Source of the DNA: Thermoplasmatota archaeon
GTDB lineage: Archaea > Thermoplasmatota > Penumbrarchaeia > Penumbrarchaeales > Penumbrarchaeaceae
Assembly: GCA_965234725.1 (NCBI GenBank)
Contig: CBDDUX010000075.1
Coordinates: forward strand, 1 to 18,483
Length of the DNA: 18,483 nt
Direction: 5' to 3'
Position numbers and translations under genes: made by a program. Within the stretch, counting starts at the first letter, position 1. Every line of letters starts with the position of its first letter. Under the pieces are notes generated by a model that was not told the DNA's origin, made no database searches, and was given only the letters and a program-made list of their open reading frames with translations. This document shows positions 1 to 18,483 of this stretch, piece by piece.

Positions 1-82
1 CCTTTGATGTTCCGTTCTTTCCCATGTTAGTGTATGGGCTTGAAAATATATAAATATTTCAGGGTCCAAACCGAAGTTAGGA

Positions 83-155
83 TGGGCCCGTCCGGATTTG
101 AACCGGAGTCTATGCGTCCCGAACGCACAAGTATACCAAGCTAACCCACGGGCCC
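83..155 (-). tRNA. tRNA-Pro(CGG), no intron, CCA not encoded
   Basis: Reverse complement folds as a cloverleaf: acceptor GGGCCCG/CGGGCCC, D-loop AGCTTGGTA, anticodon arm GTGCG-TTCGGGA-CGCAT, T-arm TCCGG-TTCAAAT-CCGGA, discriminator A. Confidence 0.96.
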
Positions 156-179
156 ATATACATGGTTGGCGAATGAAAT

Positions 180-411: not shown

Positions 412-2664
412 CTACTTCCTCCCGTGATAGAGGGAATAAATCGCAGAAAGCAGGTGGTGGTCAACATCAACGTAAGGTAGCTCCTCTTTCAGTGTATCCT
501 TGTTTGATCCTGTCAACTCCATGATCCTCTGGAAGTTATCAGTTGCAACCTGTATCGATCCTTCTTCTGCACTCTTCAGAACATCAGTTATTGATTCCTT
601 TAACTTGACAGGTAGGTCCTGATTGTTAACAAGTGCATCAAGGAAAATCCTGTAGACCTCGGAAGCTCCCTTATGGTCTCCGATCTTGTACTTGAGGGAT
701 GCCTTTGTCACGAGGAAGTAGTATCTTAATCTTCCCTCGACAGTGTCCAGTCCCAGGTTCTCGATCGATTTCAGTGCTTCTTGGGGACCGTTCACCCTCT
801 CTTCCAGAAAAGGTCTCCATATTCGGGCACATTCCTTGATGGACATCAATGTCTCATTCCCATCATCGTTCATCCCTGAAAGTCTTACAAGTACCTTCAG
901 CGCCTTTTCATTGTTACTTTCGAGTATCTCCCACATCATATCTATGAGGTCCTTCTGGGCTTTCTCTACTGCTGAGAGAGGGGACCTCACATTCTCCTTC
1001 AATCCATTCCTGTGTTCCTTTAGAAGGTCCTTTGACGGGATCTGAAGGAAGGATTCGACCATCACAGGAAGTGCTTCCCTGGTCCTTCTCGCACCTATGA
1101 GATGATGAACCTCCTCGGTGACGTACAATGGAACAGGACCAAGACCGGATTCATCCTCGATACCGAATGGATACGGGGGAACGACACCTCCTCCCTCCTG
1201 GTGGAATCCAAGACCTGTCAGCTTATCGCTGAAAAGGTCCGCAAGCATCCCGTGGCATTCTTCCTTCTCTTCAATGGTCAGGACCTTTACCGCCTGGTCC
1301 TTTATCAGGTCATGTATCACATATCCCCCGGGGGTCTGGAAGATCAGGTGGAGGTCTATCAATTTCACCATGGTATCCTTGTCAACCTCCATCATGGACG
1401 AGAGATCGTTCTCCTCCAGCTGTAACCTTGATAACGAAAGGAGGCCCAGTACCTTCAATGAGGTCTTGTCTAGCTTGTTGAAGATCTCCTCTCTGAGGAA
1501 CTGATCGAAATCACCTACGTTGAAATTATAGCCCTCGCTTTCCACAAGTACCAGGGCCAGAGGATGTCCTCCGGTCCTGTCGATGATCGTATCGACCTCA
1601 CTGTCCCTGAATCCTCTTTCAAGGAGAAGCTTCCGCGATGTCGATCTGTCAAATCCCAGCAATTCCATCTCACCGATGAGGTTGTTGATCCTCACATCCC
1701 TTATATCATAAAAGGTGGCCCTCTTCCTCGAAAGGACGATCAGGTTGATGTTCTTTTTACCAGATATCCTGTCCTTCAGAGAAGAGAGGAACATATCGAT
1801 CTCATCAGGGGCCCTGTGGAGATCGTCAAAGATCAGAAGGACCGGTAGTGCTTGTGGAATCGTCCCGAGAAGATCAGAGAGTGTCTCAATATCAGGTTCT
1901 CTGTTGGTCTCGAGGAGTTCCTTGATCCCATCCCAGCCGGACCTTGTAAAGAAGCTGGAAAGCTCTTTCAGGACGTAGGATATGGATGTCCATTCCTTGA
2001 GGTCGATATAGAAAATGTTCATCTCAGAGGCCAGGATCTGGGTGATCTTCCATCCCAGTGTCGTCTTTCCAACACCGGCAATACCGTATACGACAGTTAC
2101 CCTTCTTTTCAATGATCTCATTGCTTCCGTGAGTTCCTTGATCTCCCTCTCCCTTCCAAGGAAGATCTCCGGTGGATTCAGGGAATGGATATAGGTTGTC
2201 CTTCCCTTAACATTGATCCCATCATCGCTGTCCCTTGATCTGTCCAGGTCAAGTTTACCTGATGAGAGGACATCAGAGATGTTCTTTAGGTCAACTTCCT
2301 TATCCAGAAGGAGGTCTCCTATGGTCTTTTCACCAGTTTCTCCTCCTTTCAAAACATCGATCGTTTCGGTGGATATGATATCTGAGAGCTCCCTGGACTT
2401 CATTATCCCCTCATCTGTGAGCATATAGACCTTTCTTCTTCTTGAAAGACCGCTGATATGGGCAAGGTTCTCCTCGACGTATCCCTTGTTCATCAGTGAT
2501 CCTACAGCCCGTGGTACCGCAGACCGGATGATCCCCAGATTGGTCGCAATTCCGTCCTGGGTGACATCGATGGGAGCCTGCAGCTCCCCCCTGAATCTGG
2601 TATAATGAATTAAAAGAAGAAGAATCCTGTCCCCTACGGTCATTCTTGAACCTTTGTATCCCAT
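412..2664 (-). CDS. Winged-HTH / STAND (NB-ARC-like) ATPase with helical C-terminus, putative regulator
   Basis: N-terminal wHTH (TQDGIATNLGIIRSAVPRAVGSL...RRKVYMLTDEG), FLGREREI, Walker A GIAGVGKTT, Walker B LLIFDDLH, GGHPLAL, MHD-like IHDLIK. Start uncertain (GTG 2691, ATG 2664 or ATG 2643). Confidence 0.85.
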   Translation of the reverse strand: MGYKGSRMTVGDRILLLLIHYTRFRGELQAPIDVTQDGIATNLGIIRSAVPRAVGSLMNKGYVEENLAHISGLSRRRKVYMLTDEGIMKSRELSDIISTETIDVLKGGETGEKTIGDLLLDKEVDLKNISDVLSSGKLDLDRSRDSDDGINVKGRTTYIHSLNPPEIFLGREREIKELTEAMRSLKRRVTVVYGIAGVGKTTLGWKITQILASEMNIFYIDLKEWTSISYVLKELSSFFTRSGWDGIKELLETNREPDIETLSDLLGTIPQALPVLLIFDDLHRAPDEIDMFLSSLKDRISGKKNINLIVLSRKRATFYDIRDVRINNLIGEMELLGFDRSTSRKLLLERGFRDSEVDTIIDRTGGHPLALVLVESEGYNFNVGDFDQFLREEIFNKLDKTSLKVLGLLSLSRLQLEENDLSSMMEVDKDTMVKLIDLHLIFQTPGGYVIHDLIKDQAVKVLTIEEKEECHGMLADLFSDKLTGLGFHQEGGGVVPPYPFGIEDESGLGPVPLYVTEEVHHLIGARRTREALPVMVESFLQIPSKDLLKEHRNGLKENVRSPLSAVEKAQKDLIDMMWEILESNNEKALKVLVRLSGMNDDGNETLMSIKECARIWRPFLEERVNGPQEALKSIENLGLDTVEGRLRYYFLVTKASLKYKIGDHKGASEVYRIFLDALVNNQDLPVKLKESITDVLKSAEEGSIQVATDNFQRIMELTGSNKDTLKEELPYVDVDHHLLSAIYSLYHGRK

Positions 2665-2740
2665 TCCCTTCTCTCCATCAAAATCTTGCACTTGTATTGA
2701 CTAATGACCCTATAAACCTGATCGTTAAAATACAGGATGA

Positions 2741-5652: not shown

Positions 5653-6131
5653 AGGGAACTTATCAGGAACTTGTAACCCTATGCAAGGACAAGAGGATCA
5701 GGATAGCGACCGCCGAATCATGCACTGGTGGATACATTGCCTCCTCCATCACAGATGTTCCCGGATCTTCGGATTGCTTCCATGGAGGTATCGTTGCCTA
5801 TTCCAACGAGATCAAATCATCCCTCCTCAAAGTGAAAACGACCACTCTCGAAGAAATGGGAGCTGTTAGCAGAGAGACCGCAATGGAGATGGCCATCGGA
5901 TTGGAAGCATTATTGGGTGCAGACCTCTCCTTGTCAGTCACAGGGATCGCTGGCCCTGCAGGTGGAACATCGGAGAAACCGGTGGGAACCGTTTACATCG
6001 GAGTCAAGGAAAAGGGGAACCCTCCACATGTCGAAGGATTCCTCCTCCAGGGTCTGGATCGGTCCTCCTTCAAGGAGGAGGTATCCCGGCTCGCACTGGG
6101 AATGATGCTCGGGCATCTCTCTGAGATATAG
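5649..6131 (+). CDS. cinA: CinA C-terminal domain / PncC-type NMN deamidase
   Basis: IATAESCTGG, PGSS, YSN..K, GAVS, TGIAGPAGG..EKPVGTVYIG. Start uncertain: CTG 5649 overlapping the nadM stop, or ATG 5553. Confidence 0.9.
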   Translation: MKGTYQELVTLCKDKRIRIATAESCTGGYIASSITDVPGSSDCFHGGIVAYSNEIKSSLLKVKTTTLEEMGAVSRETAMEMAIGLEALLGADLSLSVTGIAGPAGGTSEKPVGTVYIGVKEKGNPPHVEGFLLQGLDRSSFKEEVSRLALGMMLGHLSEI

Positions 6132-6186: not shown

Positions 6187-7539
6187 ATGGAACCAGTCTG
6201 TCCCCTTGACCACAGGTATGGAAGAGAAGAGATGAAGAGGACCATGAGCCACGCCGCAAGGGTATCAAGATGCCTTGAGGTAGAAGCTGCCCTGGCCCGG
6301 GCTCATGCGGGGATAGGTAACATCCCACGGGAAGCTGCGGATGAGATAACCAGGAAAGCCTCCCTTGAATACGTTTCCCTGGACCGGGTCAATGAGATAG
6401 AGGCCGAGATCAGGCATGATATCATGGCCATCGTCCATGCCCATTCCGAGGCCTGCAGCGGGGACGCAGGGAATTATATCCATCTTGGAGCCACCTCGTA
6501 CGATATTGTGGATACGGCCCTGGCCCTCCAGATGAGGGATGGCCTTGATATTCTGTCAAAGGGAATGGACCAGCTTTCGGAGGCTCTGGCGGAAAAGGCC
6601 GAAAGATATCGTGACCTGGTAATGGTGGGGAGGACCCACGGTCAGTTTGCCATCCCAATAACCATGGGAATGAAATTGGCTGTCTGGCTTTCCGAGCTGC
6701 TTCGCCACAAGGAACGGATCCGACAATTGAGACCCCGTCTGCTTGTCGGAAAGATGTCCGGAGCCGTCGGTACCGGTGCAGCTCTTGGCGATAATGCCTT
6801 CGAGATAGAAAAAGCGGTAATGGATGACCTTGGTCTTGGAGTTGAGGAAGCTGCTACTCAGATAGTGCAGAGGGACCGGATGATAGAGCTCCTTTCAGTT
6901 CTATGCAACATTTCGGTCACCATTGAGAAGATGGCGACCGAGATAAGGACCCTTCAAAGACCTGAGATCGGGGAGCTTCAGGAATCCTTTGATACAAAGA
7001 AGCAGGTCGGTTCATCCACGATGTCTCATAAAAGGAATCCCATTGTCTGCGAGAATATTACAGGACTTGCAAGGACGCTCAGGGGATTCCTGATACCGGA
7101 ATTCGAGAATGGTATACAGTGGAATGAAAGGGACCTCTCCAATTCCTCATCCGAGAGGTTCATACTACCCCATATGATGATACTTGCCGATGATATCGTC
7201 TTCAAGATGTACGGTGTGATCCGCGATGTCTACGTAAACGAGGAGAAGATAGCGGAGAACCTTAGAAAGGCCGGTGATGTGATAATGGCAGAATCCGTGA
7301 TCATGGCCCTTTGTGAGAAGGGAATGGGCCGTCAAGAGGCCCATGAGGCCACAAGAAGGGCTGCAATGGTCCATTATCAGGGGAGACATTATCTTGAAGC
7401 CCTTCTGGAGGATCCGAACATATCATCCATCCTTACAGGATCGGAAATACGGGAAAGACTGGACCCATCTAACTATACAGGAGTGGCGGGGGCCAGGGTA
7501 GATGCCGTGATACGTCGGAGCAGATCACCAGAGAGGTGA
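6187..7539 (+). CDS. purB: Adenylosuccinate lyase
   Basis: PLDHRYG, RHDIMA, IHLGATSYDIVDTA, GRTHGQ, GAVGT, signature GSSTMSHKRNP, ERDLSNSSSER. Confidence 0.96.
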   Translation: MEPVCPLDHRYGREEMKRTMSHAARVSRCLEVEAALARAHAGIGNIPREAADEITRKASLEYVSLDRVNEIEAEIRHDIMAIVHAHSEACSGDAGNYIHLGATSYDIVDTALALQMRDGLDILSKGMDQLSEALAEKAERYRDLVMVGRTHGQFAIPITMGMKLAVWLSELLRHKERIRQLRPRLLVGKMSGAVGTGAALGDNAFEIEKAVMDDLGLGVEEAATQIVQRDRMIELLSVLCNISVTIEKMATEIRTLQRPEIGELQESFDTKKQVGSSTMSHKRNPIVCENITGLARTLRGFLIPEFENGIQWNERDLSNSSSERFILPHMMILADDIVFKMYGVIRDVYVNEEKIAENLRKAGDVIMAESVIMALCEKGMGRQEAHEATRRAAMVHYQGRHYLEALLEDPNISSILTGSEIRERLDPSNYTGVAGARVDAVIRRSRSPER

Positions 7540-10329
7540 TGGTGAACTGCCAGGCACCATTGACCATGTCTCACCCAGGGGGACCTCCTCATTGGCAGTG
7601 AAGTAGGAGAAACTTGCCTGGCCCAGAGGTGAGACATGTATTGTTGTCAATACATCTCCTGAGGTCATTCCACCCGGGACATGAATGGTCCAGGAAGGCG
7701 TGGTTTCCCACATTATCAGTTCCTCACCAATAGTGTCCGGGACCTTCATTCTCGATCCTGTGGTAAGGTCCAATATGATCTGGTCCAGGATATCCACCTT
7801 ATCGAGCTTGACAAGATCATCAGTTGAAAGAGAGGGGAAAACGATCATCCTCGAGAGGTCTGGCATTTTACCACCCTGGAATGATATATGGATCCCGATC
7901 GAAAGACCATTCTCCTCCGCATAGGGAACAATACTTCTGAAAACGGTTCCAAGGTCCTTCCCGTATACATCTGGTAGAGATCTGATAACGTCTCCAAGGT
8001 CCTCCCCTATCAAGAGTACGGAAGCGGATATTGATAGGTCATCATCGGATTCCGGATAGTCCCCGGAAAGATATGGGGATGGTCTTCTCATGATATCGAT
8101 GGATAGAGTTGGAGATGCAAGGTAGGCAGAGGATAGGAGCCTGGTAACGATCTCACCTGGTTGTTTAGGCATCGAGGAGCCTTCGTTGATATTGTACCCT
8201 GCGAAATTACCGTGAACAGTGAACGTTCCCATGTCCAGGTCCAATTCGATCCTGGTACCAGACCAGAGAGCAACCTCCCCCTGGACATTCATTTCACCTC
8301 CGGAAATGGGTCCTATTTCCAGGGTACATTTTCCCTGGGGAAGCATGGATACGATCTCCATCCTGTCCCTCGCAAGGGAATATGAGAATTGAAGGTTCTG
8401 ACCGTCAATTCTCAGAGGTCCCAGGTCATTTAGGTCTATGCCAGGGACCTTGATCTTGTTGTTATAGAAGATATGGAGGTCCTCCTGGGCATCGGTGGTC
8501 CTCAACCAGGAGTCAAGTGAAGAAAGTGCTGCCATCGATGATGAATGAATCGACTGCCTTGCTTCAAGCGGTCCCAACATCTCATCGGCCCATCCGGCAC
8601 TTCTTGAAAGAGAGGATAGAGTTCCGAAGGCTTCCCTGAGCTCCAGCCATGATCTTGATTCGAAATATTCGGTGGCGTTGGCCAATGATGTGATCAACCA
8701 TCCAGTGGATGTTGGTGTGTAGAACTGCTTTCCGGAATTGATATTCCTCAGATGCTCCTTGAAACCTTCATCAACCAATGTTCCGGTCCCAGAATAGATC
8801 CTGACAGGGAATGAGAATTCCAGTGTCCTTTCCATGCTTGATGGATCATAGGTGTTGCCGGCCCATCCCACAGAATCGGCTGACAGCAGGAAGGAGCCCT
8901 TAATATCGAGGTCCCACTGGATACGGTAATCATGGTTGGGAGGCTGGGGCGGAGGTGGTATGGCCCCGCATCTGGTCACTTTATTGATCTGGCTCCCGTT
9001 CCCGGTGGCTATTAGATTCTCATCAGTCAATGACAGGTTTGCATTGGTATACCAGGCATTGTAATCATGAATGCCCTTTACAATGAGGTCCTTCCCTAAA
9101 ACCAGGAAATCAGTATCCAAGGTTGGTTTGAGCGTCCCTGCGGTCACATTGCCTGAAAGTAGCGATCCTGTTGTGATGATCGGGATCCCTTTGTACGACG
9201 TAAAGGAAGGATGGTGTTCAAGTGAATATGGATCAAATGTTTTTGCCGGCAGTCTCGGATCAAGGAGCTGGTTCTCCTTAAGTGGTGATTGAAGGTCAAG
9301 TGCCTCTGTCCTTCCAAGTGTCTTTCCGGTTCTATCCAGGTAGAGGTATCTCATGAAAAGATCTGCAGTATCGGCATGTCCGAATGTCGTTACAAGGGAG
9401 AGAAGGTCCTCTGCAGATCTCCTGACGGGATCATTGCCAGCTGACCGGCCATAATCCCTGAAGTTATCGATCTCCGACATCCCCCAATACCTGTTCCCAG
9501 AAGGGTTCATGATAGTGGCGGGTTCAAGAAGTGAGAAATGAGAGTCTATTGAAGAAGCTAGAGATGGAGGAACGGTACCGGTCCATCTTGCCATTGCAAC
9601 TGCCAGGGCGAAATTGGTCGCAAGCTCCACATCACCGCCGTTCATCAAATGCAGATAGGAATCGGAGAAATCTGTTCCTACCCCATTGGCCGCTCTCAGC
9701 CTGACTATGGTGTTAAGTATGTACTCCACATCCCTTGCCATTCTTGAATACCAAGAATTGGTATCATCTTCCAGAAGATCGATCAGGACCGAAAGAGCTC
9801 TTTCCGGGTCCAGGGTCTCTGTGGAATACGAGATGGTCTCATATCTGATCTCCCCGCCGTTCTCGGGTTCCAGGGAGATCGTCAGAATGACATTTGTCCT
9901 CAGGGCCGGGACTGCGGAAAGAGCACCGGATGACCCGAACATTCTGCTATCAGGAGTAAGGGTTCCGTCATTTTTCTCGTATCCGGATGAAGGTAAGGGG
10001 AGTTCCATTGCAAGCTGGGTCTCTGTTACAAAAACATCTTGTGAGACCAGAACCACCCTGTGATCCGGTACAAGCATTTCAGAGTTGGAGACCCAGGTAG
10101 TGAGATTGGCTTCTATATCCTTGGAAACCTCATCAGCAGTGGAGGATCCCATCTCGGAAGCAAGTGTGCCCGTAAGTGACGACATTCTCTGGGTGAAGGG
10201 TCCCAGCTCAATGGTTGGGGATGGTCTATCGGTTTCTCCGTTTGACAGGAAATAGACAGCTCCGGCACCGGTCAGTCCGATGACAAGGGCGACAGCAAAC
10301 AGCGGTCCTGCAAGATTATTGGATGACAT
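7525..10329 (-). CDS. Large hypothetical membrane-anchored/exported protein (934 aa)
   Basis: Long ORF with N-terminal TM (LFAVALVIGLTGAGAVYFL), GGAGGT RBS at 10335-10340, 14-nt overlap with the upstream gene. Confidence 0.8.
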   Translation of the reverse strand: MSSNNLAGPLFAVALVIGLTGAGAVYFLSNGETDRPSPTIELGPFTQRMSSLTGTLASEMGSSTADEVSKDIEANLTTWVSNSEMLVPDHRVVLVSQDVFVTETQLAMELPLPSSGYEKNDGTLTPDSRMFGSSGALSAVPALRTNVILTISLEPENGGEIRYETISYSTETLDPERALSVLIDLLEDDTNSWYSRMARDVEYILNTIVRLRAANGVGTDFSDSYLHLMNGGDVELATNFALAVAMARWTGTVPPSLASSIDSHFSLLEPATIMNPSGNRYWGMSEIDNFRDYGRSAGNDPVRRSAEDLLSLVTTFGHADTADLFMRYLYLDRTGKTLGRTEALDLQSPLKENQLLDPRLPAKTFDPYSLEHHPSFTSYKGIPIITTGSLLSGNVTAGTLKPTLDTDFLVLGKDLIVKGIHDYNAWYTNANLSLTDENLIATGNGSQINKVTRCGAIPPPPQPPNHDYRIQWDLDIKGSFLLSADSVGWAGNTYDPSSMERTLEFSFPVRIYSGTGTLVDEGFKEHLRNINSGKQFYTPTSTGWLITSLANATEYFESRSWLELREAFGTLSSLSRSAGWADEMLGPLEARQSIHSSSMAALSSLDSWLRTTDAQEDLHIFYNNKIKVPGIDLNDLGPLRIDGQNLQFSYSLARDRMEIVSMLPQGKCTLEIGPISGGEMNVQGEVALWSGTRIELDLDMGTFTVHGNFAGYNINEGSSMPKQPGEIVTRLLSSAYLASPTLSIDIMRRPSPYLSGDYPESDDDLSISASVLLIGEDLGDVIRSLPDVYGKDLGTVFRSIVPYAEENGLSIGIHISFQGGKMPDLSRMIVFPSLSTDDLVKLDKVDILDQIILDLTTGSRMKVPDTIGEELIMWETTPSWTIHVPGGMTSGDVLTTIHVSPLGQASFSYFTANEEVPLGETWSMVPGSSPSPLW

Positions 10330-10864
10330 TTTCTACCTCCCATACCTTCAATTGGAAGTTGAGTGTGATCTCCTGACCATCCTTCAGATCAACTACAACG
10401 GTCTGACTGGTGGAGGTGGAACTCTTATCAATGTTATCAGAGCTGGAGACCACATGACTCCTTTCGGTGTCCCAGCCCTGTCCGGAACTGACAGTAAAGA
10501 TATATGGAGTATCATCTCCCAGCAGGAAGTCTATGTATCCGGACGTTATCGAATCTGTTCCTGACATGTTAGAAGAGGTCTCGGATAGGAGGATATAGTA
10601 AGCCACCGGGATCGAGAGGTCACTGTAATCCTTCTCGTTCACCTCGATCTGGTCCACGGTGGAAGAAAGGAGTATACTCAAAGGTGTGGAATAGGGGTCG
10701 TTCTCGGTGTTCGTTCCCTCTTTCAGGAGTTCTGGAAGGATGGCAGCGATCATGATCCCAGCCACAGAGAGGAAAACAGCTATGAGAATGGCAGTTCTCA
10801 TGGGAAGATGGAATGAACTTCTTCCCTCATCTTCAGAAGATAGGTCAAGTGGTCTATTCTCCAA
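10316..10864 (-). CDS. Hypothetical protein with N-terminal TM helix (possibly minor pilin-like)
   Basis: TTG start with GGAGGTGA RBS (10871-10878), hydrophobic segment AILIAVFLSVAGIMIAAIL, terminal strand ITLNFQLKVW. Confidence 0.75.
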   Translation of the reverse strand: MENRPLDLSSEDEGRSSFHLPMRTAILIAVFLSVAGIMIAAILPELLKEGTNTENDPYSTPLSILLSSTVDQIEVNEKDYSDLSIPVAYYILLSETSSNMSGTDSITSGYIDFLLGDDTPYIFTVSSGQGWDTERSHVVSSSDNIDKSSTSTSQTVVVDLKDGQEITLNFQLKVWEVENVIQ

Positions 10865-11312
10865 AAAGGGTCACCTCCAGTCTTGCCGGGAGGATCCTTC
10901 CGGTCGATGTCTCCACTGCCACATGTTCAATTTGCATTGTTTCCCTGTCCTTTGAATGGTCGTCATAGGATCTCGTATCGGGAACCTTTACAATTATCTC
11001 TGTCTGGTCGGCCAGGATGACCCGGACCAATGCGACCCTCCCATCGAAAGGGTCCATGTCCGATACCCTTCCGGGGTCGGTGGAAAGCTCCTCGATGGCG
11101 AGTGCACCTGATGCTCCGCTATATGTGGACATCAGTACCGGCACGGTCAATCGGGTCTTGGTTCCAAGTTCAGCGTCCCTGTCATTCTCATTGTCCAAAT
11201 AGACCGCGATGCTGCATCCTGCCAGGAATATTACGAGTCCTGTTGCGACAACTGCAAGGCTCCTGCCGTATTCCATTCCTATGGTGACCCTCCGTTTTGT
11301 TCTTATATTCAT
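10854..11312 (-). CDS. Hypothetical protein with N-terminal TM helix (possibly minor pilin-like)
   Basis: Basic N-terminus then SLAVVATGLVIFLAGCSIAVYL, C-terminus VAVETSTGRILPARLEVTLF. First gene of an overlapping operon. Start uncertain (11357, 11312 or 11276). Confidence 0.7.
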   Translation of the reverse strand: MNIRTKRRVTIGMEYGRSLAVVATGLVIFLAGCSIAVYLDNENDRDAELGTKTRLTVPVLMSTYSGASGALAIEELSTDPGRVSDMDPFDGRVALVRVILADQTEIIVKVPDTRSYDDHSKDRETMQIEHVAVETSTGRILPARLEVTLFGE

Positions 11313-11380
11313 TGATCCCGCCCCTTTTTGAATATTCCGGTACACCGGTGGACACATGTGATACCATATACTGAAACAAA

Positions 11381-14280: not shown

Positions 14281-14332
14281 TGCATATGTTTTATGCAAGA
14301 TTATAAATATGCATATGTATTATAATCATTAT
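14281..14332 (+). promoter_or_regulatory. TA promoter with candidate autoregulatory palindromes
   Basis: TTATAAATA (14301-14309) about 25-30 nt before ATG 14333, flanked by TGCATA-n5-TATGCA (14281-14297) and ATATGCATAT (14307-14316). Confidence 0.55.
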
Positions 14333-14527
14333 ATGTCAGAAACAACGACAATACGCATCAGCACCGAGGTCAGGGATAGCCTGAAGGGACTTGGAAACAT
14401 AGGTGATGATTACGATGCGGTGATAGACAGATTGATCAGAGAACATAACAGAGAGAGTTTGGTCCAGTATTCAAGGAAGGTCGTAGAAGAGAGGAAGGAG
14501 GATTTTGTTGACATCGACGACCTTTAA
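14333..14527 (+). CDS. Ribbon-helix-helix-type antitoxin
   Basis: TTTIRISTEVRDSLKGLG..GDDYDAVIDRLI, acidic tail EDFVDIDDL, overlaps the downstream RelE-like gene. Confidence 0.82.
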   Translation: MSETTTIRISTEVRDSLKGLGNIGDDYDAVIDRLIREHNRESLVQYSRKVVEERKEDFVDIDDL

Positions 14528-14792
14528 GGTCCTTGTCCTCCCTGAACAACTTCGGGATATTCCCCCCTCAAGGGAGAGGGAGATCAAGGAGGCTATAAGG
14601 GAATTGAAGGAACCATATCCGGGTATTGGTAGGGGAGATAAGAAACTGATCAGAGGTTCCAGGGATGTAGTATACCGATTGCGTAGTGGTGAATACAGGA
14701 TCTTCTACAGGATCGAGAAGAGGATGAGGATCGTTTATGTATTTGACATTCTCAATCAGGATGCAGCTCATAAGAAATATGGAAGATTGTAG
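14508..14792 (+). CDS. relE: RelE/ParE family toxin
   Basis: About 94 aa, basic, with KEPYP..GDKKLIRG...YRLRSGEYRIFYRI....VYV. TTG start (14505 or 14508) after GGAGG. Confidence 0.88.
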   Translation: MTSTTFKVLVLPEQLRDIPPSREREIKEAIRELKEPYPGIGRGDKKLIRGSRDVVYRLRSGEYRIFYRIEKRMRIVYVFDILNQDAAHKKYGRL

Positions 14793-14886
14793 AGGTTTTT
14801 TCTGGCCAGGTTTGGTTTAAATAATCTTTAAGTAGAAAAAGGGTATCTCCCAGTTCAGAGGACCTGAGCCCAGTATTTTGATCCAT

Positions 14887-15003
14887 GTCGGGGTGGCTCA
14901 GCTTGGTGGAGCGCCGGACTCATAGGGGCCCTTGTGGCTATACGTGAGCTCCCAAGTACCCGGAGAAATCCGGAGGTCGCGGGTTCAAACCCCGTCCCCG
15001 ACA
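14887..15003 (+). tRNA. Elongator tRNA-Met(CAT) with a 43-nt intron at 37/38 (14925-14967)
   Basis: Acceptor GTCGGGG/CCCCGAC, D-arm GCTC..GAGC, anticodon arm CCGGA-CTCATA|A-TCCGG, T-arm GCGGG-TTCAAAC-CCCGT. BHB-like junction CTCA/GGAG with TAG and AAA bulges. Confidence 0.95.
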
Positions 15004-15051
15004 CCTTTTCTTAATAAGCCAGACACATCTCATTTTGTTGGTTTGTCCCCC

Positions 15052-15059
15052 TTTTTTTT
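15052..15059 (+). terminator. Oligo-T tract, possible archaeal terminator after tRNA-Met
   Basis: T8 run about 50 nt downstream of the tRNA. Confidence 0.4.
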
Positions 15060-15135
15060 AATACACTATTTATGACGATACAATTGCACACAGTTTACAG
15101 TTAATTACAAATAATGTTAACTCTGTACAACAATC

Positions 15136-15333
15136 ATGACATTGGCAACAAAGAGGATTCCTGTCACCGAAGAAACCCTTGATTTGATCAAAGGTTTAGG
15201 TCACAAAGGTCAGACCTATGATGATCTCCTACAGGAGATGGCAGAAGCCTATCGAAGAGAGAAATTCCTAAGGATGCTGAAAGAAAGGCGAGAAGAGGGG
15301 GATTTCGTGGACTTCGACGAGGCATTTGAATGA
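15136..15333 (+). CDS. Ribbon-helix-helix-type antitoxin (similar to 14333-14527)
   Basis: TKRIPVTEETLDLIKGLGHKGQTYDDLL, tail EGDFVDFDEAFE, ATGA overlap with the toxin. Confidence 0.83.
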   Translation: MTLATKRIPVTEETLDLIKGLGHKGQTYDDLLQEMAEAYRREKFLRMLKERREEGDFVDFDEAFE

Positions 15334-15602
15334 CCTATAGTCTTAAGGTTGAAAAAAGAGCAATCAAAGAAATGAATCTCCTTTCAAAGAACATTCAAGA
15401 TAGGATTAAAGAGAAGATCAAAGTAACACTAGTTGAAAACCCATTTCCAACAGGGGATAATGATATAAAGAAAATCAAGGGATCAAAATTCTGGAGATTG
15501 CGGATTGGAGAATATCGAGTATTCTTTGATATTGATCAAGAAGATAATATCGTTTATATCCTTTCAATAAGACATCGTTCTAAAGCCTATAGAGAATTGT
15601 AA
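15330..15602 (+). CDS. relE: RelE/ParE family toxin
   Basis: MTYSLKVEKRAIKEM...ENPFP...IKKIKG..FWRLRIGEYRVFFDI...IVYILSIRHRSKAY. Confidence 0.92.
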   Translation: MTYSLKVEKRAIKEMNLLSKNIQDRIKEKIKVTLVENPFPTGDNDIKKIKGSKFWRLRIGEYRVFFDIDQEDNIVYILSIRHRSKAYREL

Positions 15603-15614
15603 ATAGGTAAGTTG

Positions 15615-15795
15615 AGGCCCCCGAAGGGACCCTTTCTTCCTTTGCTCCTGTTCATCTCTCTTGAAGGCATCCAGAAGAGATAATATCATGTTGGGTATCG
15701 TTTTTGACATCTTGGAGGTCACTACCTCCAAGGTAAGGAAAATCTCTGATTTTCTGGAAGTTTTGAGTCTGTTTTCAAACCATGTCCCCGACACT
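15615..15795. repeat. Conserved ~180-bp non-coding element, copy 1, ending in a tRNA-Met 3'-end copy (19/21)
   Basis: Aligns to 18027-18205 with 35 substitutions and a 2-nt gap by hand count. The last 65 nt have only 4 mismatches. Confidence 0.92.
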
Positions 15796-15798
15796 TTA

Positions 15799-16001
15799 CT
15801 ACCATTGCTATGCAATGGTAGATAGTATTTGCTGGTGACGTAGGGGTCCTCCGAGTGGAAGATCGATGTGAAATTGGTCCAAGGCGAGGAGGCCTGAAAA
15901 ATCTTTGATTTTTCAAAGGTTGAACCCTTGGGTGGTTGAGCATTTGAAATGTGTAATCGACGATCTAAAATGCTCAACCTGAGCAAAACCGAAGGTTTTG
16001 C
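15799..16001. repeat. Gene-less cluster of perfect inverted repeats
   Basis: CTACCATTGC-tat-GCAATGGTAG (15799-15821), TGAAAAATC-ttt-GATTTTTCA (15895-15915), GGTTGAGCATTT..AAATGCTCAACC (15934-15979), GCAAAACC-gaa-GGTTTTGC (15983-16001). Confidence 0.88.
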
Positions 16002-16030
16002 GGAATCAAATTCTAATTAGAGTGAAAGAG

Positions 16031-16052
16031 AACCCCGTCCCCGACACCTTTT
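16031..16052 (+). repeat. att-like copy of the tRNA-Met 3' end plus downstream bases
   Basis: AACCCCGTCCCCGACACCTTTT identical to 14988-15009 (22/22). Confidence 0.92.
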
Positions 16053-16148
16053 GGTTTGATTACGGTACCATATAGTTAGACCCCGTCACCTCAGCGGTTG
16101 GAACCTACACCTCTACTTTAAGCAGGAATGAGTCTATTTTCGTAAATA

Positions 16149-17108
16149 TCAATTCGTATGTTTTTTCAACTGAGATAATCTCCATTTTACAACTGGATGA
16201 TCGACAAGATTGTTTTTAATATCAATATCCTCAAATAATAATTTCTGATCGAACTGGTGTTCATCATAGTATCTATCGAGAAACATCTTCTCATTATTAG
16301 AAAATGAAAGTATCATATCTACAGTTTCAACACATCTTTGTTTCATCTCATCAAGATCGATCCTGTGATCTCCTCTTTTCATCATCGGGATCAGGAAACG
16401 TTTGATATCTCTTTGGTCAATGCCTCGGATCAGATCTGAATTCATCTTTCTTACATCTTGAGGGGTCAAGCAAAGATTAAAGATTGTAAGTTTTCGATAG
16501 ATATCTTTATCGATTGATTCCTGATCCACTGAAAGATAATAGACATCAAAAAGATCTCTGGGTGTTGCACGAGTTATCAAAGCTCTGGTTTTCTGAGCTA
16601 CCAATTCATTATAGGAGAATGTTGAAAACTCAAAATCACCAAGAATATCAAAAGGATGGTTCACTCTTCTTTTTACAACTGGTAGAAAAGGAATTCTTTC
16701 GGAAAAATTGATCTCAACCTTCACTCTGTCTCTATTCCCTGTAACATCGTCATAAGCGATGATGTATTGTTCCATGGAGTGGTTTGATTCCTGCTTCTCA
16801 AGATCATAATGGAATTCTCTGAAGATCCTGTGGAGAAAGATGTCAATCTTCTCCCTATCTTCCATCATCTCATCTCTATCCAGACTTCCAATGTAGTTCA
16901 GGTCAATATCAACAGATAACCTTCTGATATCCTTGTACATTAATTGTAATGCGGTCCCGCCTTTCAAGAGGAATTTATCTTCAATTCCAGGACCTTTGGA
17001 GATCGTCTCAAGTATTTCAACAAGCCTGTATACCTTTTCAAGAGGGGACCTGATGAAATCTGTTTCCCGAGAAACATTTTCAATGTATTTTCTATCGGGT
17101 TCAGGCAA
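16149..17108 (-). CDS. abiEii: AbiEii-family nucleotidyltransferase (type IV TA toxin)
   Basis: LEKVYRL, LKGGTAL, RLSVDIDLN, KVEIN, K.RAL..R..PRDLFD. TTG start overlapping the antitoxin stop. Confidence 0.9.
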   Translation of the reverse strand: MPEPDRKYIENVSRETDFIRSPLEKVYRLVEILETISKGPGIEDKFLLKGGTALQLMYKDIRRLSVDIDLNYIGSLDRDEMMEDREKIDIFLHRIFREFHYDLEKQESNHSMEQYIIAYDDVTGNRDRVKVEINFSERIPFLPVVKRRVNHPFDILGDFEFSTFSYNELVAQKTRALITRATPRDLFDVYYLSVDQESIDKDIYRKLTIFNLCLTPQDVRKMNSDLIRGIDQRDIKRFLIPMMKRGDHRIDLDEMKQRCVETVDMILSFSNNEKMFLDRYYDEHQFDQKLLFEDIDIKNNLVDHPVVKWRLSQLKKHTN

Positions 17109-17916
17109 ATCTCCTCATCTCCTCGATATTCTTTGGCACTATCAGATTCCATTCCTTGTTTAATTCAACAGATGTCATTTTCAATCTGGGTTGCAGATAA
17201 TATGTCCTTTTCATCTCAGAAGACCTTAACTCGTCGAGAACTTCTATTGGAACATCCATGGTATCTTTTAGTATTGTAAGAATATATCCTGTTCTCCGGA
17301 TAAGGCTCTGTTCTTGAAAAGTATACAGATAATCTAGTAATTTCTTGAAATCCAACTTGTGGAATGTACTGATACTCTTGATCACCTCTTCGATCCCTCC
17401 TCCTTGATCAACAGATCTTATGCAATCCAGGCAAGTTCTCTCCCTATCAGTCACAGGGATCTTGATGCCTTCCCTCATGATCTCCTTTATTCCGAATAAA
17501 TTCTTATTGTTGATATAATAATATTCAACGTTCTGAAATTTAAAGTTCTTGTGACGAAATGAACTGATGAAATAAACCATGTTAAAATATGAATTGGCCA
17601 CGCCATGAAGTTCTAATGCAGAGTGGAAACCGAATGCTCCGTCAATACTCCCAACTTTATAACAAATTAAGTAACGATCAGGTTCAAATCTCGATCCCAG
17701 GTCATCTGGGGGAACACCTGCATAGGTTCCTCTGTATACTCTTATAGCATATCCCTTCTTGACCAGTCGAGTAAGTGTTGATCTTGTTGTATCATAGTTA
17801 TTGGATACCTTTGAGATCTCCTCCAATGAACTTACTTTCTTCTTCACAAGGTAAATATATATACGATGTTCATTTGGAGTAAGCATTACGTCATTTGTGT
17901 TGTATGTAGATGTCAT
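17101..17916 (-). CDS. abiEi: AbiEi-family antitoxin / transcriptional regulator
   Basis: N-terminal wHTH (LTRLVKKGYAIRVYRGTY), FHSALELHG, VTDRERTCLDC, GGIEEV, RRTGYIL, WNLIVP. Start ATG 17916 (17886 possible). Confidence 0.88.
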   Translation of the reverse strand: MTSTYNTNDVMLTPNEHRIYIYLVKKKVSSLEEISKVSNNYDTTRSTLTRLVKKGYAIRVYRGTYAGVPPDDLGSRFEPDRYLICYKVGSIDGAFGFHSALELHGVANSYFNMVYFISSFRHKNFKFQNVEYYYINNKNLFGIKEIMREGIKIPVTDRERTCLDCIRSVDQGGGIEEVIKSISTFHKLDFKKLLDYLYTFQEQSLIRRTGYILTILKDTMDVPIEVLDELRSSEMKRTYYLQPRLKMTSVELNKEWNLIVPKNIEEMRRFA

Positions 17917-18009
17917 GTATACAAATAGCACAATAAACGTAATGGATTAAATAATTTACTTCTCCGAATGTTCCGATTGCATCTGATTTGTATACAAATG
18001 GAACAATAA
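17916..18009 (-). promoter_or_regulatory. abiE promoter with two candidate operator repeats
   Basis: TGTATACAAATAGCACAATAA (17916-17936) and TGTATACAAATGGAACAATAA (17989-18009), 19/21 identical. Perfect palindrome ATTTGTATACAAAT (17986-17999). Minus-strand TATTTAAT at 17946-17953. Confidence 0.6.
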
Positions 18010-18026
18010 GAGAAATAATGAAGGTT

Positions 18027-18205
18027 AGGCCCCCGAAGGAGCCCTTTTCCTTTACTCCCGATCATCTCTCAGATCGGCATCTCAGAGAAATTCTTTCATT
18101 TTTTATACCTTTTTTGACATCTTTGAGGCGCATGCCTCGAAGGTAAGGAAAATCTTTGATTTTCTGGAAGTCTTGAGTCTGTTTTCAAACCCCGTCCCCG
18201 ACACT
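18027..18205. repeat. Conserved ~180-bp non-coding element, copy 2, ending in an exact tRNA-Met 3'-end copy
   Basis: TTCAAACCCCGTCCCCGACAC at 18184-18204 equals 14984-15004 (21/21). The remainder aligns to 15615-15773. Confidence 0.92.
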
Positions 18206-18286
18206 CATACATTATTTGGGTATTATATTAGATTATTAAGCTATTTCTCGATGTCGAGTACGAAACTCGAACCTGTCACCTTATTT

Positions 18287-18433
18287 TTAATTATGAATCT
18301 GCTCATATGCTTGCTTTTCTTCTTCACGAGGACCTGTTTCTTCTGGAGGAACTTCCTCTTTTTGTTTCATATCTTCAGGTTCTTGTTGTCCTTTCTTCAT
18401 CAAGAAAAGGATAGCTCCAATCCCAATTCCTAT
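18287..18433 (-). pseudogene. Possible C-terminal remnant of a membrane-anchored protein
   Basis: Reads IGIGIGAILFLMKKGQQEPEDMKQKEEVPPEETGPREEEKQAYEQIHN-stop (part of a TM helix plus charged tail). In-frame TGA at 18464-18466 and no start codon upstream of the hydrophobic stretch. Confidence 0.45.
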
Positions 18434-18483
18434 CTGGAAAGGCTCACAACATCGTTTACCTTTTCATTTTGATGTTTTTGGCT

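Follow-up and report, generated by a model that had tools for sequence, protein, structure and literature searches.

A candidate tandem array of small integrative cassettes anchored at a tRNA(CAU) 3' end in a Thermoplasmatota archaeon

Behind a tRNA gene of a Thermoplasmatota archaeon, copies of the tRNA 3' end divide the DNA into short units, two of which carry a ParE or an AbiE gene pair. The locus raises the question of how such a row was built: by small mobile cassettes, by the decay of larger elements, or by rearrangement among repeats. We analyzed the whole stretch of 18,483 nucleotides (the window). Low-GC DNA runs on past 18205 to the end of the window, so the array is cut by it. A sequence-only reading had proposed integron-like cassettes stacked at the tRNA. 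The answer that we favour, with a confidence slightly above even, is that small non-autonomous integrative cassettes have accumulated in tandem at the tRNA(CAU) 3' end through site-specific recombination.

A single scan of 185,579 species genomes with the junction pattern returned two contigs of Thermoplasmatales MAGs, L001 and L002. This narrow spread may mean that the family is limited to a single lineage, or that relatives escaped a pattern as exact as this one. The sequence covered comprises 3.5 kb downstream of the window tRNA, 15.6 kb of the 56-kb L002 and 4.4 kb of L001.

The tRNA anchor and the units behind it

The tRNA gene matches its Rfam family over the full length (Table 1). ARAGORN gave no call for it. 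The CAU anticodon would make it a tRNA for Met, or for Ile2 if modified. This gene is the anchor of the array, and its last 21-22 nt are the repeated core, which starts at the T-loop and stops 1-2 nt past the discriminator base. With up to three mismatches, the 16-nt 3' core of the tRNA occurs four times in the window, against 0.18 by chance; none of 200 shuffles got to four. One copy, at 14988, lies within the tRNA. The others, at 15778 (two mismatches), 16031 and 18188 (none), confirm the three downstream recurrences described before, and the start-to-start distances are 790, 253 and 2157 bp. The tRNA homology of both gene-bearing units opens at the T-loop motif TTCAAAC, also as described. 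That of unit 2 opens later, at AACCCC. An intact tRNA at one end, with an insert flanked by direct repeats of the tRNA 3' part, is a trait of tRNA-targeting integrative elements of the tyrosine-integrase type, and the array shows it.

Seven pairs of inverted repeats are present in 14500-18483, and none links the two ends of one unit. The units thus lack the terminal inverted repeats and target-site duplication of a MITE or insertion sequence; direct repeats of the tRNA core mark their limits instead.

Table 1. Features of the tRNA gene and of the units downstream of it in the window.
Feature	Position	Strand	Remarks
tRNA gene	14887-15003	+	anticodon CAU, 45-nt intron; Rfam RF00005, 54.1 bits, full length 1-71
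Core at the tRNA 3' end	14984-15005
Unit 1	15006-15796	+	791 bp, GC 0.377
Own upstream region, unit 1	15006-15135		130 nt
DUF7557 antitoxin, unit 1	15136-15333	+	Pfam
ParE_toxin (ParE/RelE fold), unit 1	15330-15602	+	Pfam
Arm, unit 1	15601-15795		covariance-model match 15605-15798, 200 bits
Core, unit 1	15776-15796		2 mismatches
Unit 2	15797-16048	+	252 bp, no gene
Two-hairpin insert, unit 2	15848-15919		72 nt, fold z = -3.6
Core, unit 2	16031-16048
Unit 3	16049-18205	+	2157 bp, GC 0.372
Type-A left end, unit 3	16049-16111
AbiEii, unit 3	16149-17108	-	Pfam, PADLOC
AbiEi, unit 3	17101-17931	-	Pfam, PADLOC
Direct repeats upstream of abiEi, unit 3	17916-17943 and 17989-18016
Arm, unit 3	18013-18205		covariance-model match 18017-18208, 212 bits
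Core, unit 3	18184-18205
Fourth unit, start only	18206-18483	+	GC 0.36; window ends
Type-B left end, fourth unit	18206-18288		77-79% identity to L001 979-1098 and L002 15408-15311
Degenerate tRNA-3'-like stretch, fourth unit	~18255-18285		fifth copy of repeat D2, 68%
Surface-type protein tail with C-terminal membrane anchor, fourth unit		-	in-frame stop; from translation

The units of the window and its relatives have a GC content of 0.36-0.47, against 0.496 over the 14.2 kb upstream. By base composition, they are foreign DNA. The pair of unit 1 had been labelled RelBE-type. More exactly, it is a toxin of the ParE/RelE fold with a DUF7557 antitoxin. AbiEi and AbiEii, identified by Pfam and PADLOC, both lie on the minus strand, opposite to the pair of unit 1, as had been noted. 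In unit 2, a different kind of end precedes the core. The motif CTTTT follows the core in both gene-bearing window units, as had been noted, and L001 shows TTTT. However, none of the eight left ends in L002 opens with CTTTT, so the motif does not define the family.

The enzyme that could move these units was searched for in the ORFs. No recombinase was found by Pfam in 20 window ORFs and 25 from L001 and L002, by PHROGs in 14 ORFs or by NCBIfam in 12. The 20 window ORFs are a long, mostly non-nested pick from 93 of at least 50 aa. Window ORFs of no assigned function gave no recombinase in PHROGs, NCBIfam, PDB sequences or Atlas. Likewise, neither the array nor the 14.9 kb upstream of the tRNA has an integrase among its scanned ORFs, and no scanned ORF of the three sequences has an integrase fragment. 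An autonomous relative with the arm described below was not found in the window, L001, L002 or phage and plasmid collections. The co-occurring tyrosine recombinase suggested earlier is thus missing from the ORFs scanned over 38 kb. We call the units non-autonomous because no unit examined has an integrase of its own.

These results bear on the comparison with integrons. Discrete units, each closed by an element similar to a recombination site (11 complete units and nine full arms, relatives included), would suit a true integron, with IntI, attI and cassettes bounded by attC. Integrons are also reported from archaeal MAGs (10.1101/2022.02.06.479319 / PMC9668308). However, IntI is absent from the scanned ORFs beside the tRNA. 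The attC signature GTTRRRY/RYYYAAC was found at 0 of 4 window boundaries (-60/+30 nt), and these boundaries are tRNA 3' cores. The cargo also departs from the mostly promoterless, co-oriented cassettes that a common promoter reads: it has its own upstream regions and lies in both orientations (130 nt in the plus-strand ParE unit, repeats in the minus-strand AbiE unit). Integron membership is rejected on these grounds, and we give it next to no credence. What stands of the earlier term "integron-like" is an analogy in outline: a fixed entry point, small cassettes, hairpin-bearing end elements and TA cargo. The crossover core, by contrast, is here the 3' end of a tRNA.

A structured arm closes the units

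Both gene-bearing window units end in the same element, in agreement with the first reading. This arm is ~190 nt long in units 1 and 3 and 130-195 nt across the family. The two window arms are 79.6% identical over 196 nt, and their last 52 nt show two differences. A covariance model (R1) was run over 38,459 bases (window, L001 and L002). It matches nine full arms with 127-212 bits, one divergent arm (22.6 bits) and one truncated arm (19.9 bits), which takes the family beyond two copies. Compared in pairs, the arms are 59-82% identical across 134-195 aligned columns; near the core, long stretches are exact. The inner boundary is a GC hairpin followed by a T-run in eight of the nine arms; its sequence changes and its pairing is kept. 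In plus-strand units, the cargo genes stop 10-100 nt ahead of this hairpin.

The three arm helices are 92.2% paired. Nine pairs are changed on both sides, compared with 3.3 +/- 1.2 in shuffles (0/500) and 0-2 in slid controls, in a sample of nine related sequences from which the structure itself was drawn. This covariation supports the three helices. The hairpin segments have fold z values of -3.1 to -4.2, and the G-U pairs of the helices occur in the plus strand sense only. Pairing, fold and strand sense would all be expected if the arm were chiefly a small structured RNA gene, or a single-stranded DNA structure with its own function, carried along beside the att core, and the repeats a by-product of array growth. 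Nevertheless, the arm has no Rfam match even at E up to 1, and no promoter-like box conserved among its copies was seen on reading the alignment. The two helices with the best support make up a 50-nt module that is optional, since three of the nine arms lack it, and the structure comes from few and related sequences. We consider this explanation very unlikely.

One arm copy is a hybrid that joins the 5' half of one palindrome variant to the 3' half of the other, and in L002 a piece of arm is located after a core. These mixed arms, the similarity between copies and the lack of a recombinase in the scanned ORFs might suggest that, after a few founding integrations, homologous recombination between the shared arms and cores gained, lost and reordered the units. 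However, the boundaries sit at the core and are not scattered along the much longer homology of the arms. The initial integration at the tRNA has just 21-22 nt of homology, and the intact, precisely restored tRNA favours conservative site-specific exchange. Shuffling without a dedicated site-specific enzyme seems highly improbable.

Related arrays, unit order and decay

The three sequences together contain 11 complete units of 0.18-5.4 kb and four partial ones. L002 has seven cores with up to three substitutions, all on one strand, and an eighth that is too degenerate for the core scan. L001 has one intact core and one interrupted. As cargo, the family carries AbiE pairs (three, divergent) and ParE pairs, along with DUF2202, a metalloprotease-like protein and surface proteins; in L002 the cargo lies in both orientations. 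The earlier description as TA and defence cargo therefore fits the AbiE and ParE pairs and not the remainder. Over the 38 kb visible, the arms close small units of unrelated cargo and not large integrase-bearing islands, as that description implied.

The unit ends are more alike than the cargo. In BLAST, the arm of the window AbiE unit and the one that follows a DUF2202 gene share 90% identity across 163 nt, and left ends of type A share 78-81%. Between AbiE units, AbiEii protein identity is just 23-29%. The left ends belong to about six types, and types A, B and C are each present in three units of different cargo.

Unit order and content vary between genomes, as had been anticipated, and none of the three outcomes that the first reading named as refuting it occurred. 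Unit 2 is 93-94% identical to L002 15593-15395, a gene-less unit of 180-252 bp in the two genomes; the two-hairpin insert is missing in the L002 copy. There, this unit and a type-B unit are neighbours; the window has the AbiE unit of 2157 bp exactly between the two, with a core on either side, an exact core-to-core insertion relative to L002. Like the foreign base composition, absence from the same site in a relative is a trait of tRNA-targeting integrative elements. The comparison is made within arrays, though, and two direct repeats of 17-22 nt would yield the same pattern if the DNA between them were deleted through homologous recombination or slippage. Nor is the difference a simple recent event, because the flanks diverge unequally (93-94% for unit 2, 79% for the type-B flank). 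In addition, ~290 bp of the tRNA-proximal ParE unit are found again at 92% in the seventh unit of L002.

Several units are decayed, so part of the array is a graveyard. Several cores are degenerate (1-3 or more mismatches), and one is split by a ~55-bp insert. The 5.4-kb unit of L002 is a run of short overlapping ORFs, like a frameshifted surface-protein gene. In the L002 ParE unit, an antitoxin like that of the window has a frameshift and forms a fusion with a further TA pair. The main rival explanation extends this decay to the whole array. Integrase-encoding elements of one family would have integrated serially at the tRNA and lost the integrase and most genes, leaving att sites and the loss-resistant TA and Abi genes. 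Such units would never have had a cassette form and would now be immobile. Besides the damaged cores, frameshifts and chimeric TA units, the variable left ends agree with it, and TA and Abi genes are over-represented, as addictive remnants should be. Tandem integration followed by decay to att-flanked CIMEs is described (PMC5704250), and a mention is made of archaeal elements that lose the integrase once integrated (PMC8371274).

Other observations count against it. Independent deletions should stop at different points, and the same hairpin starts eight of the nine arms; this shared boundary argues against random deletion end points. Left-end types are common to units with different cargo. The ends are 78-90% identical, whereas the cargo is unrelated or as divergent as the AbiEii proteins. 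The gene-less unit is well conserved between the window and L002. Finally, tycheposon islands contain scattered integrase fragments (10.1101/2020.12.28.424599), and the scanned ORFs here show none. We regard decay of the whole array as possible but doubtful.

A possible mechanism and its relation to known systems

In the reading that we favour, a circular cassette would carry one attP-like site and one or two cargo genes. Three parts would form this site: the arm of 130-195 nt, the core, whose 21-22 nt are the same as in the tRNA between T-loop and 3' end, and a left end of 60-130 nt. Lambda-type attP sites measure ~250-300 bp and are asymmetric; the three parts together would have this size and asymmetry. 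Integration at the tRNA would rebuild the gene, and the old 3' core, with the arm now before it, would move downstream. Repeated integrations would therefore stack the units with cores between them. Any unit could exit through recombination of its two flanking cores. The enzyme would be a tyrosine integrase encoded elsewhere, with accessory binding sites in the arm. We only infer this mobilization in trans. The first arm hairpin and its T-run may shield the arm from cargo transcription. Likewise, in units close to the tRNA, the T-run that follows the core may end transcription of the restored tRNA gene.

The covariation with plus-strand G-U pairs is unexpected for the double-strand arm sites of an integrase, and hints at an RNA or single-strand role outside this model. 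A more speculative view, which we hold with little confidence, is a dedicated gene-cassette platform in some Thermoplasmatales-type archaea, independently evolved and integron-like. The tRNA(CAU) 3' end would act as attI, and each cassette would consist of cargo, structured arm and 21-nt core. A recombinase would capture, stack, reorder and release them, reading the arm through its strand-specific hairpins as folded single-stranded DNA, like attC, or as RNA.

Small modules without a recombinase are known in bacteria. Staphylococcal SCC composite islands contain ccr-less pseudo-SCC units at rlmH, and Xer-dependent modules include IMEX elements and the pdif modules of Acinetobacter. They similarly have short recombination sites at their borders, are stacked at one site or shuffled, and depend for their movement on an enzyme that they do not encode; TA genes are frequent among their cargo. 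They differ in their sites (the rlmH end or dif-like), their enzymes and their bacterial hosts, and have no long conserved arm.

The CIMEs of Streptococcus are also close. They are flanked by att sites, lack recombination genes, lie in tandem at the 3' ends of tRNA and other genes, and rely on the integrase of another element (PMC5704250, citing Pavlovic 2004 and Bellanger 2011). As in the present units, attL and attR are kept with no integrase gene, and stacking occurs by integration into the att site that holds the target gene's end (PMC5704250). However, CIMEs are described as what decay leaves of ICEs or IMEs, and a site usually has one or two of them (PMC5704250). Here, there are at least eight compact units in one array with a defined 130-195-nt structured end, in an archaeal host, and no conjugative or integrase-bearing partner in the DNA examined.

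The tycheposon islands of Prochlorococcus share the tRNA anchoring, neighbours parted only by a partial tRNA copy, and adaptive or defensive cargo; newer arrivals shift older ones inward, and extra partial tRNAs mark older events (10.1101/2020.12.28.424599). Tycheposons encode an integrase and often replication genes (10.1101/2020.12.28.424599). These hallmarks, integrase and replication module, are absent from all units examined here, which are far smaller and have a conserved non-coding arm. In archaea, tyrosine-recombinase elements re-use one site and form arrays. The cases described are proviruses, casposons and plasmids that span several kb or more and have backbone genes that can be recognised (PMC6563490, PMC8371274), in contrast to the present rows of 0.2-5-kb cassettes with one common end.

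Neither tandem integration at tRNA genes nor remnants that lack an integrase are new. What sets this array apart is a row of at least eight compact cassettes with one structured end in common and unrelated cargo. The arm model would offer a search handle for the missing integrase, and the array would allow one to ask whether hairpin structure is important at an att site of the tRNA type. Should the array be no more than a graveyard, it shows the extent to which debris builds up at such sites, and that TA and Abi genes are the survivors. If active, it would be a simple archaeal means of collecting and exchanging defence, addiction and cell-surface genes at one safe site, and would give an archaeal lineage that is hard to work with a minimal natural vehicle made of attP and cargo.

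Cores and arms in the window and in related arrays

The 16-nt 3' end of the tRNA(CAU), or core, occurs four times in the window when up to three mismatches are allowed. The chance expectation is 0.18 copies, and none of 200 shuffled sequences reaches four. The cores are spaced by 790, 253 and 2157 bp. The arms, which are the structured ends preceding the core in units 1 and 3, are homologous (79.6% identity over 196 nt), and their final 52 nt differ at two positions only. The sequence-only reading, which took the recurring tRNA 3' end as a unit boundary, was correct on this point. The intron-containing tRNA was not called by ARAGORN. The GC content is 0.496 in the host DNA upstream and 0.37-0.44 in the window units. 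The last 278 bases of the window are GC-poor (0.36), which indicates that the array extends beyond the window end.

We scanned 185,579 species-representative genomes with a 22-letter pattern of the arm-core junction, leaving two positions free. This pattern demanded 20 exact bases, and diverged copies were thereby missed. It matched two contigs, each bearing the label of a Thermoplasmatales MAG. One is L001 (4.4 kb); the other, L002, comprises 15.6 kb at the end of a 56-kb contig. The window's own genome is absent among the matches. L002 shows seven cores with at most three substitutions, all on one strand, and an eighth more degenerate than this limit allows. One of its contig ends lies within a core. 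L001 has one intact core and another split by an insert of ~55 bp. Both loci lack any tRNA gene.

A covariance model of the arm (R1) was built on nine copies and searched unfiltered over the 38,459 bases of the window, L001 and L002. It recovered nine arms over their full length, at 127-212 bits. A divergent copy scored 22.6 bits, and a copy truncated at the locus end 19.9 bits. The other four matches (E 0.14-0.91) correspond to the tRNA itself or to pieces the size of a hairpin, and the window holds no additional arm copy by this search. Thus, the arm is not limited to the two copies first noticed. It has no blastn match in phage or plasmid collections, and it matches no Rfam family, whether the gathering score or a limit of E = 1 is applied.

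A second DUF7557/ParE pair, whose toxin shares 39% identity with the cassette toxin, stands outside the array in GC-poor DNA (0.41). R1 found no arm or core near this pair.

Positions of features in the window and in the two related loci (core copies from the window scan)
Feature	Locus	Position	Strand	Remark
tRNA-Pro (CGG)	window	80-156	-	left edge of window
STAND-type ATPase, 759 aa	window	412-2691	-	winged-helix region N-terminal; adjoins tRNA-Pro
Three successive ORFs (934, 182, 167 aa)	window	7525-11357	-	GC host-like
Second DUF7557/ParE pair	window	14309-14792		directly upstream of tRNA
tRNA, anticodon CAU, 45-nt intron	window	14887-15003	+	Rfam, full-length; its 3' end is a core copy
Core copy	window	15778		2 mismatches
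Core copy	window	16031		exact
Core copy	window	18188		exact
Unit 1 cargo: DUF7557 antitoxin, ParE-fold toxin	window		+	
Unit 3 cargo: AbiEii/AbiEi	window		-	
140-aa ORF	window	15564-15986	-	spans a core
28-nt direct repeats	window	17916-17943; 17989-18016		upstream of abiEi
Short core-like stretch	window	16081-16093		type-A left end
Degenerate copy of tRNA 3' part	window	18255-18285		type-B left end, 45-50 nt past core
Degenerate copy of tRNA 3' part	L001	~1068-1098		as above
Degenerate copy of tRNA 3' part	L002	~15347-15320		as above
Two-hairpin module	window	15848-15919		
Two-hairpin modules	window	~15706-15765; ~18116-18175		in arms
Two-hairpin module	L002	2268-2227		
Two-hairpin module	L001	3611-3665		
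3' end of another tRNA	L002	~6090-6120	-	in ninth arm
5.4-kb unit	L002	10142-15318		

Unit order, shared ends and decay

The gene-less unit 2 is 93-94% identical between the window and L002. In L002, it is followed by one core and then directly by type-B sequence, one of the kinds of left end found after a core. In the window, the type-B sequence comes after the last core. The 2157-bp AbiE unit lies exactly between unit 2 and this sequence, with a core on either side. Likewise, ~290 bp of the tRNA-proximal ParE unit are present at 92% identity in the seventh unit of L002. The order of units varies between genomes, as anticipated for cassettes: relative to L002, the AbiE unit is an insertion bounded by cores, and a segment of the ParE unit stands at another place. 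These differences fit a history in which integrase-less units were gained or lost one at a time at the cores. The exact presence or absence of the AbiE unit could also result from a deletion between two direct repeats of 17-22 nt. The divergence of the flanks is unequal (93-94% versus 79%), so the history is not one recent event.

The ends of the units resemble each other more than their cargo does. The arm of unit 3 matches the arm that follows the DUF2202 gene in L002 at 90% identity (163 nt), and the one that follows a second AbiE pair at 83%. The 60-nt left end following the core shows 78-81% identity among three units. The AbiEii proteins of the AbiE units share only 23-29% identity. Eight of the nine arms open with a GC-rich hairpin and then a T-run, variable in sequence and conserved in pairing. 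The ninth, in L002, carries the 3' end of another tRNA (T-loop of the TTCGAAT type) in place of the first hairpin. This fragment is preceded by 9 nt identical to those before the core of window unit 2, and it hints that related ends may once have been used at another tRNA.

In type-A and type-B left ends, a second degenerate core-like stretch is present 30-75 nt past the real core, with no match in Rfam; in type-B ends it covers a longer portion of the tRNA 3' part. Such stretches could be what is left of earlier att sites, or they could belong to the site itself.

Decay and mosaicism are evident in the arrays: several of the cores have degenerated, and an insert interrupts one. In the 5.4-kb unit of L002, the ORFs are short and overlap one another (DUF7948, SBBP propeller, He_PIG, fn3 and a membrane tail), a pattern expected of a large surface-protein gene broken by frameshifts. 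The fourth unit of the window opens with the tail of a similar surface-protein gene, with an in-frame stop. In the L002 ParE unit, a window-like antitoxin is frameshifted. Besides, the initial 15 codons of a window-like toxin are fused to another DUF7557/ParE pair; the toxin of this pair shares 33% identity with that of the window. The array could accordingly be read as a graveyard of decayed elements. Nevertheless, the units have a common inner boundary, which is not expected from independent deletions. From one core to the next, a unit has 60-130 nt, then one or two genes (taking up to ~5 kb in the largest unit) and finally an arm. Cargo genes on the + strand end 10-100 nt upstream of the first hairpin of the arm, so the units are compact.

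Structure of the arm

Three helices were drawn by hand on the alignment of nine arms, and 92.2% of their positions are paired; they derive from the sequences tested, and these copies are few and related. Pairs changed on both sides number nine, against 3.3 +/- 1.2 in 500 shuffles (none that high), and 0-2 when the partners are slid by 1-3 columns. Recurrent G-U pairs appear in the + strand sense only. A 50-nt module, with fold z of -3.1 to -4.2, comprises the two best-supported helices and is missing in three arms. For these few related copies and the structure drawn from them, the evidence speaks for part of the arm acting as a folded strand or as RNA.

Some presence/absence differences consist of two-hairpin modules, 50-72 nt in length. 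One kind occurs in six of the nine arms; a similar piece is found in window unit 2 and not in the L002 copy of this unit, and part of one lies directly past an L002 core. The insert splitting the L001 core is an unrelated two-hairpin piece. These modules may represent a very small element of their own, either mobile or prone to recombination.

We rejected the idea that the arm is what remains of a coding sequence, for instance a split SSV-type integrase. By our reading of the alignment, a stop at codon 6 ends its - strand mini-ORF in five of nine copies. The + strand frames are not conserved, and the 140-aa ORF spanning a core has no Pfam match.

Cargo, recombinase search and mechanism

There are 11 complete core-bounded units of 180-5395 bp (three in the window, one in L001 and seven in L002) and four partial ones. 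Their cargo consists of three AbiEi/AbiEii pairs, ParE/DUF7557 pairs, a DUF2202 protein, surface proteins with FG-GAP, beta-propeller, He_PIG and fn3, and two family-less repeat proteins, secreted or membrane. It also includes a metalloprotease-like protein of 598 aa, anchored in the membrane at its C-terminus; the Pfam matches of this protein are weak and all under curated cut-offs. Two units are gene-less. Across units, both strands are used.

AbiEi binds repeats within its own promoter. The two 28-nt repeats upstream of abiEi (82% identical, 73 bp apart) may be candidate operator sites for its autoregulation.

No recombinase domain was found by Pfam in 20 window ORFs and 25 ORFs of L001 and L002, by PHROGs in 14 ORFs, or by NCBIfam in 12. 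The 20 window ORFs are long, mostly non-nested ones out of 93 listed; the floors were at least 70 aa for L002 and at least 60 aa for L001. P0001 and P0002, two proteins of the units, were rejected as hidden recombinases, and both read as secreted or membrane repeat proteins. The 934-aa upstream ORF was also rejected, with no match in Pfam, PHROGs, NCBIfam, PDB sequences or the ESM Atlas. The two ORFs that follow it have no match in the first three collections. A sigma-70/terminator scan was set aside, being of little value for archaeal DNA.

Conservative site-specific recombination at the tRNA core is the most economical reading. The arm, core and left end would jointly form an attP of ~250-300 bp. 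Lambda-type sites have an attP of such size and asymmetry. Integration would restore the tRNA and displace the earlier core, and the flanking cores would let a unit excise as a circle. The recombining enzyme would be supplied from elsewhere, as an integrase acting in trans, and the units may still be mobile at present. The hairpin and T-run at the inner edge of the arm might insulate it from cargo transcription. In tRNA-proximal units, the T-run right past the core might terminate the restored tRNA gene; it is present in the window and L001, and in none of the eight L002 left ends.

The array can be compared with SCC composite islands, IMEX elements and pdif modules. In archaea, an integration site can be reused in tandem (PMC6563490, PMC8371274). 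CIMEs are att-flanked units without integrase that accrete alongside other elements (PMC5704250). The tRNA-anchored islands of Prochlorococcus contain tandem elements divided by partial tRNAs (tycheposon preprint). However, those elements encode integrases, with integrase fragments across the islands. Integrons have been reported in archaeal MAGs. The sequence-only reading called the array integron-like, which holds as an analogy. Membership does not hold: the ORFs scanned include no IntI, attC motifs occur at none of the four boundaries, and the cargo orientation is mixed. Passages found in a survey of genomic islands in acidophilic archaea make no mention of arrays of this kind. In our full-text literature search, no account turned up of small integrase-less cassettes that stand in rows at an archaeal tRNA and share a structured end.

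The comparative evidence supports the claim of a cassette family, and none of the outcomes named beforehand as contrary to it was found. It seems rather unlikely, with a minor share of the probability, that the array is a dedicated, structure-dependent cassette platform. If this were true, it would merit far more attention.
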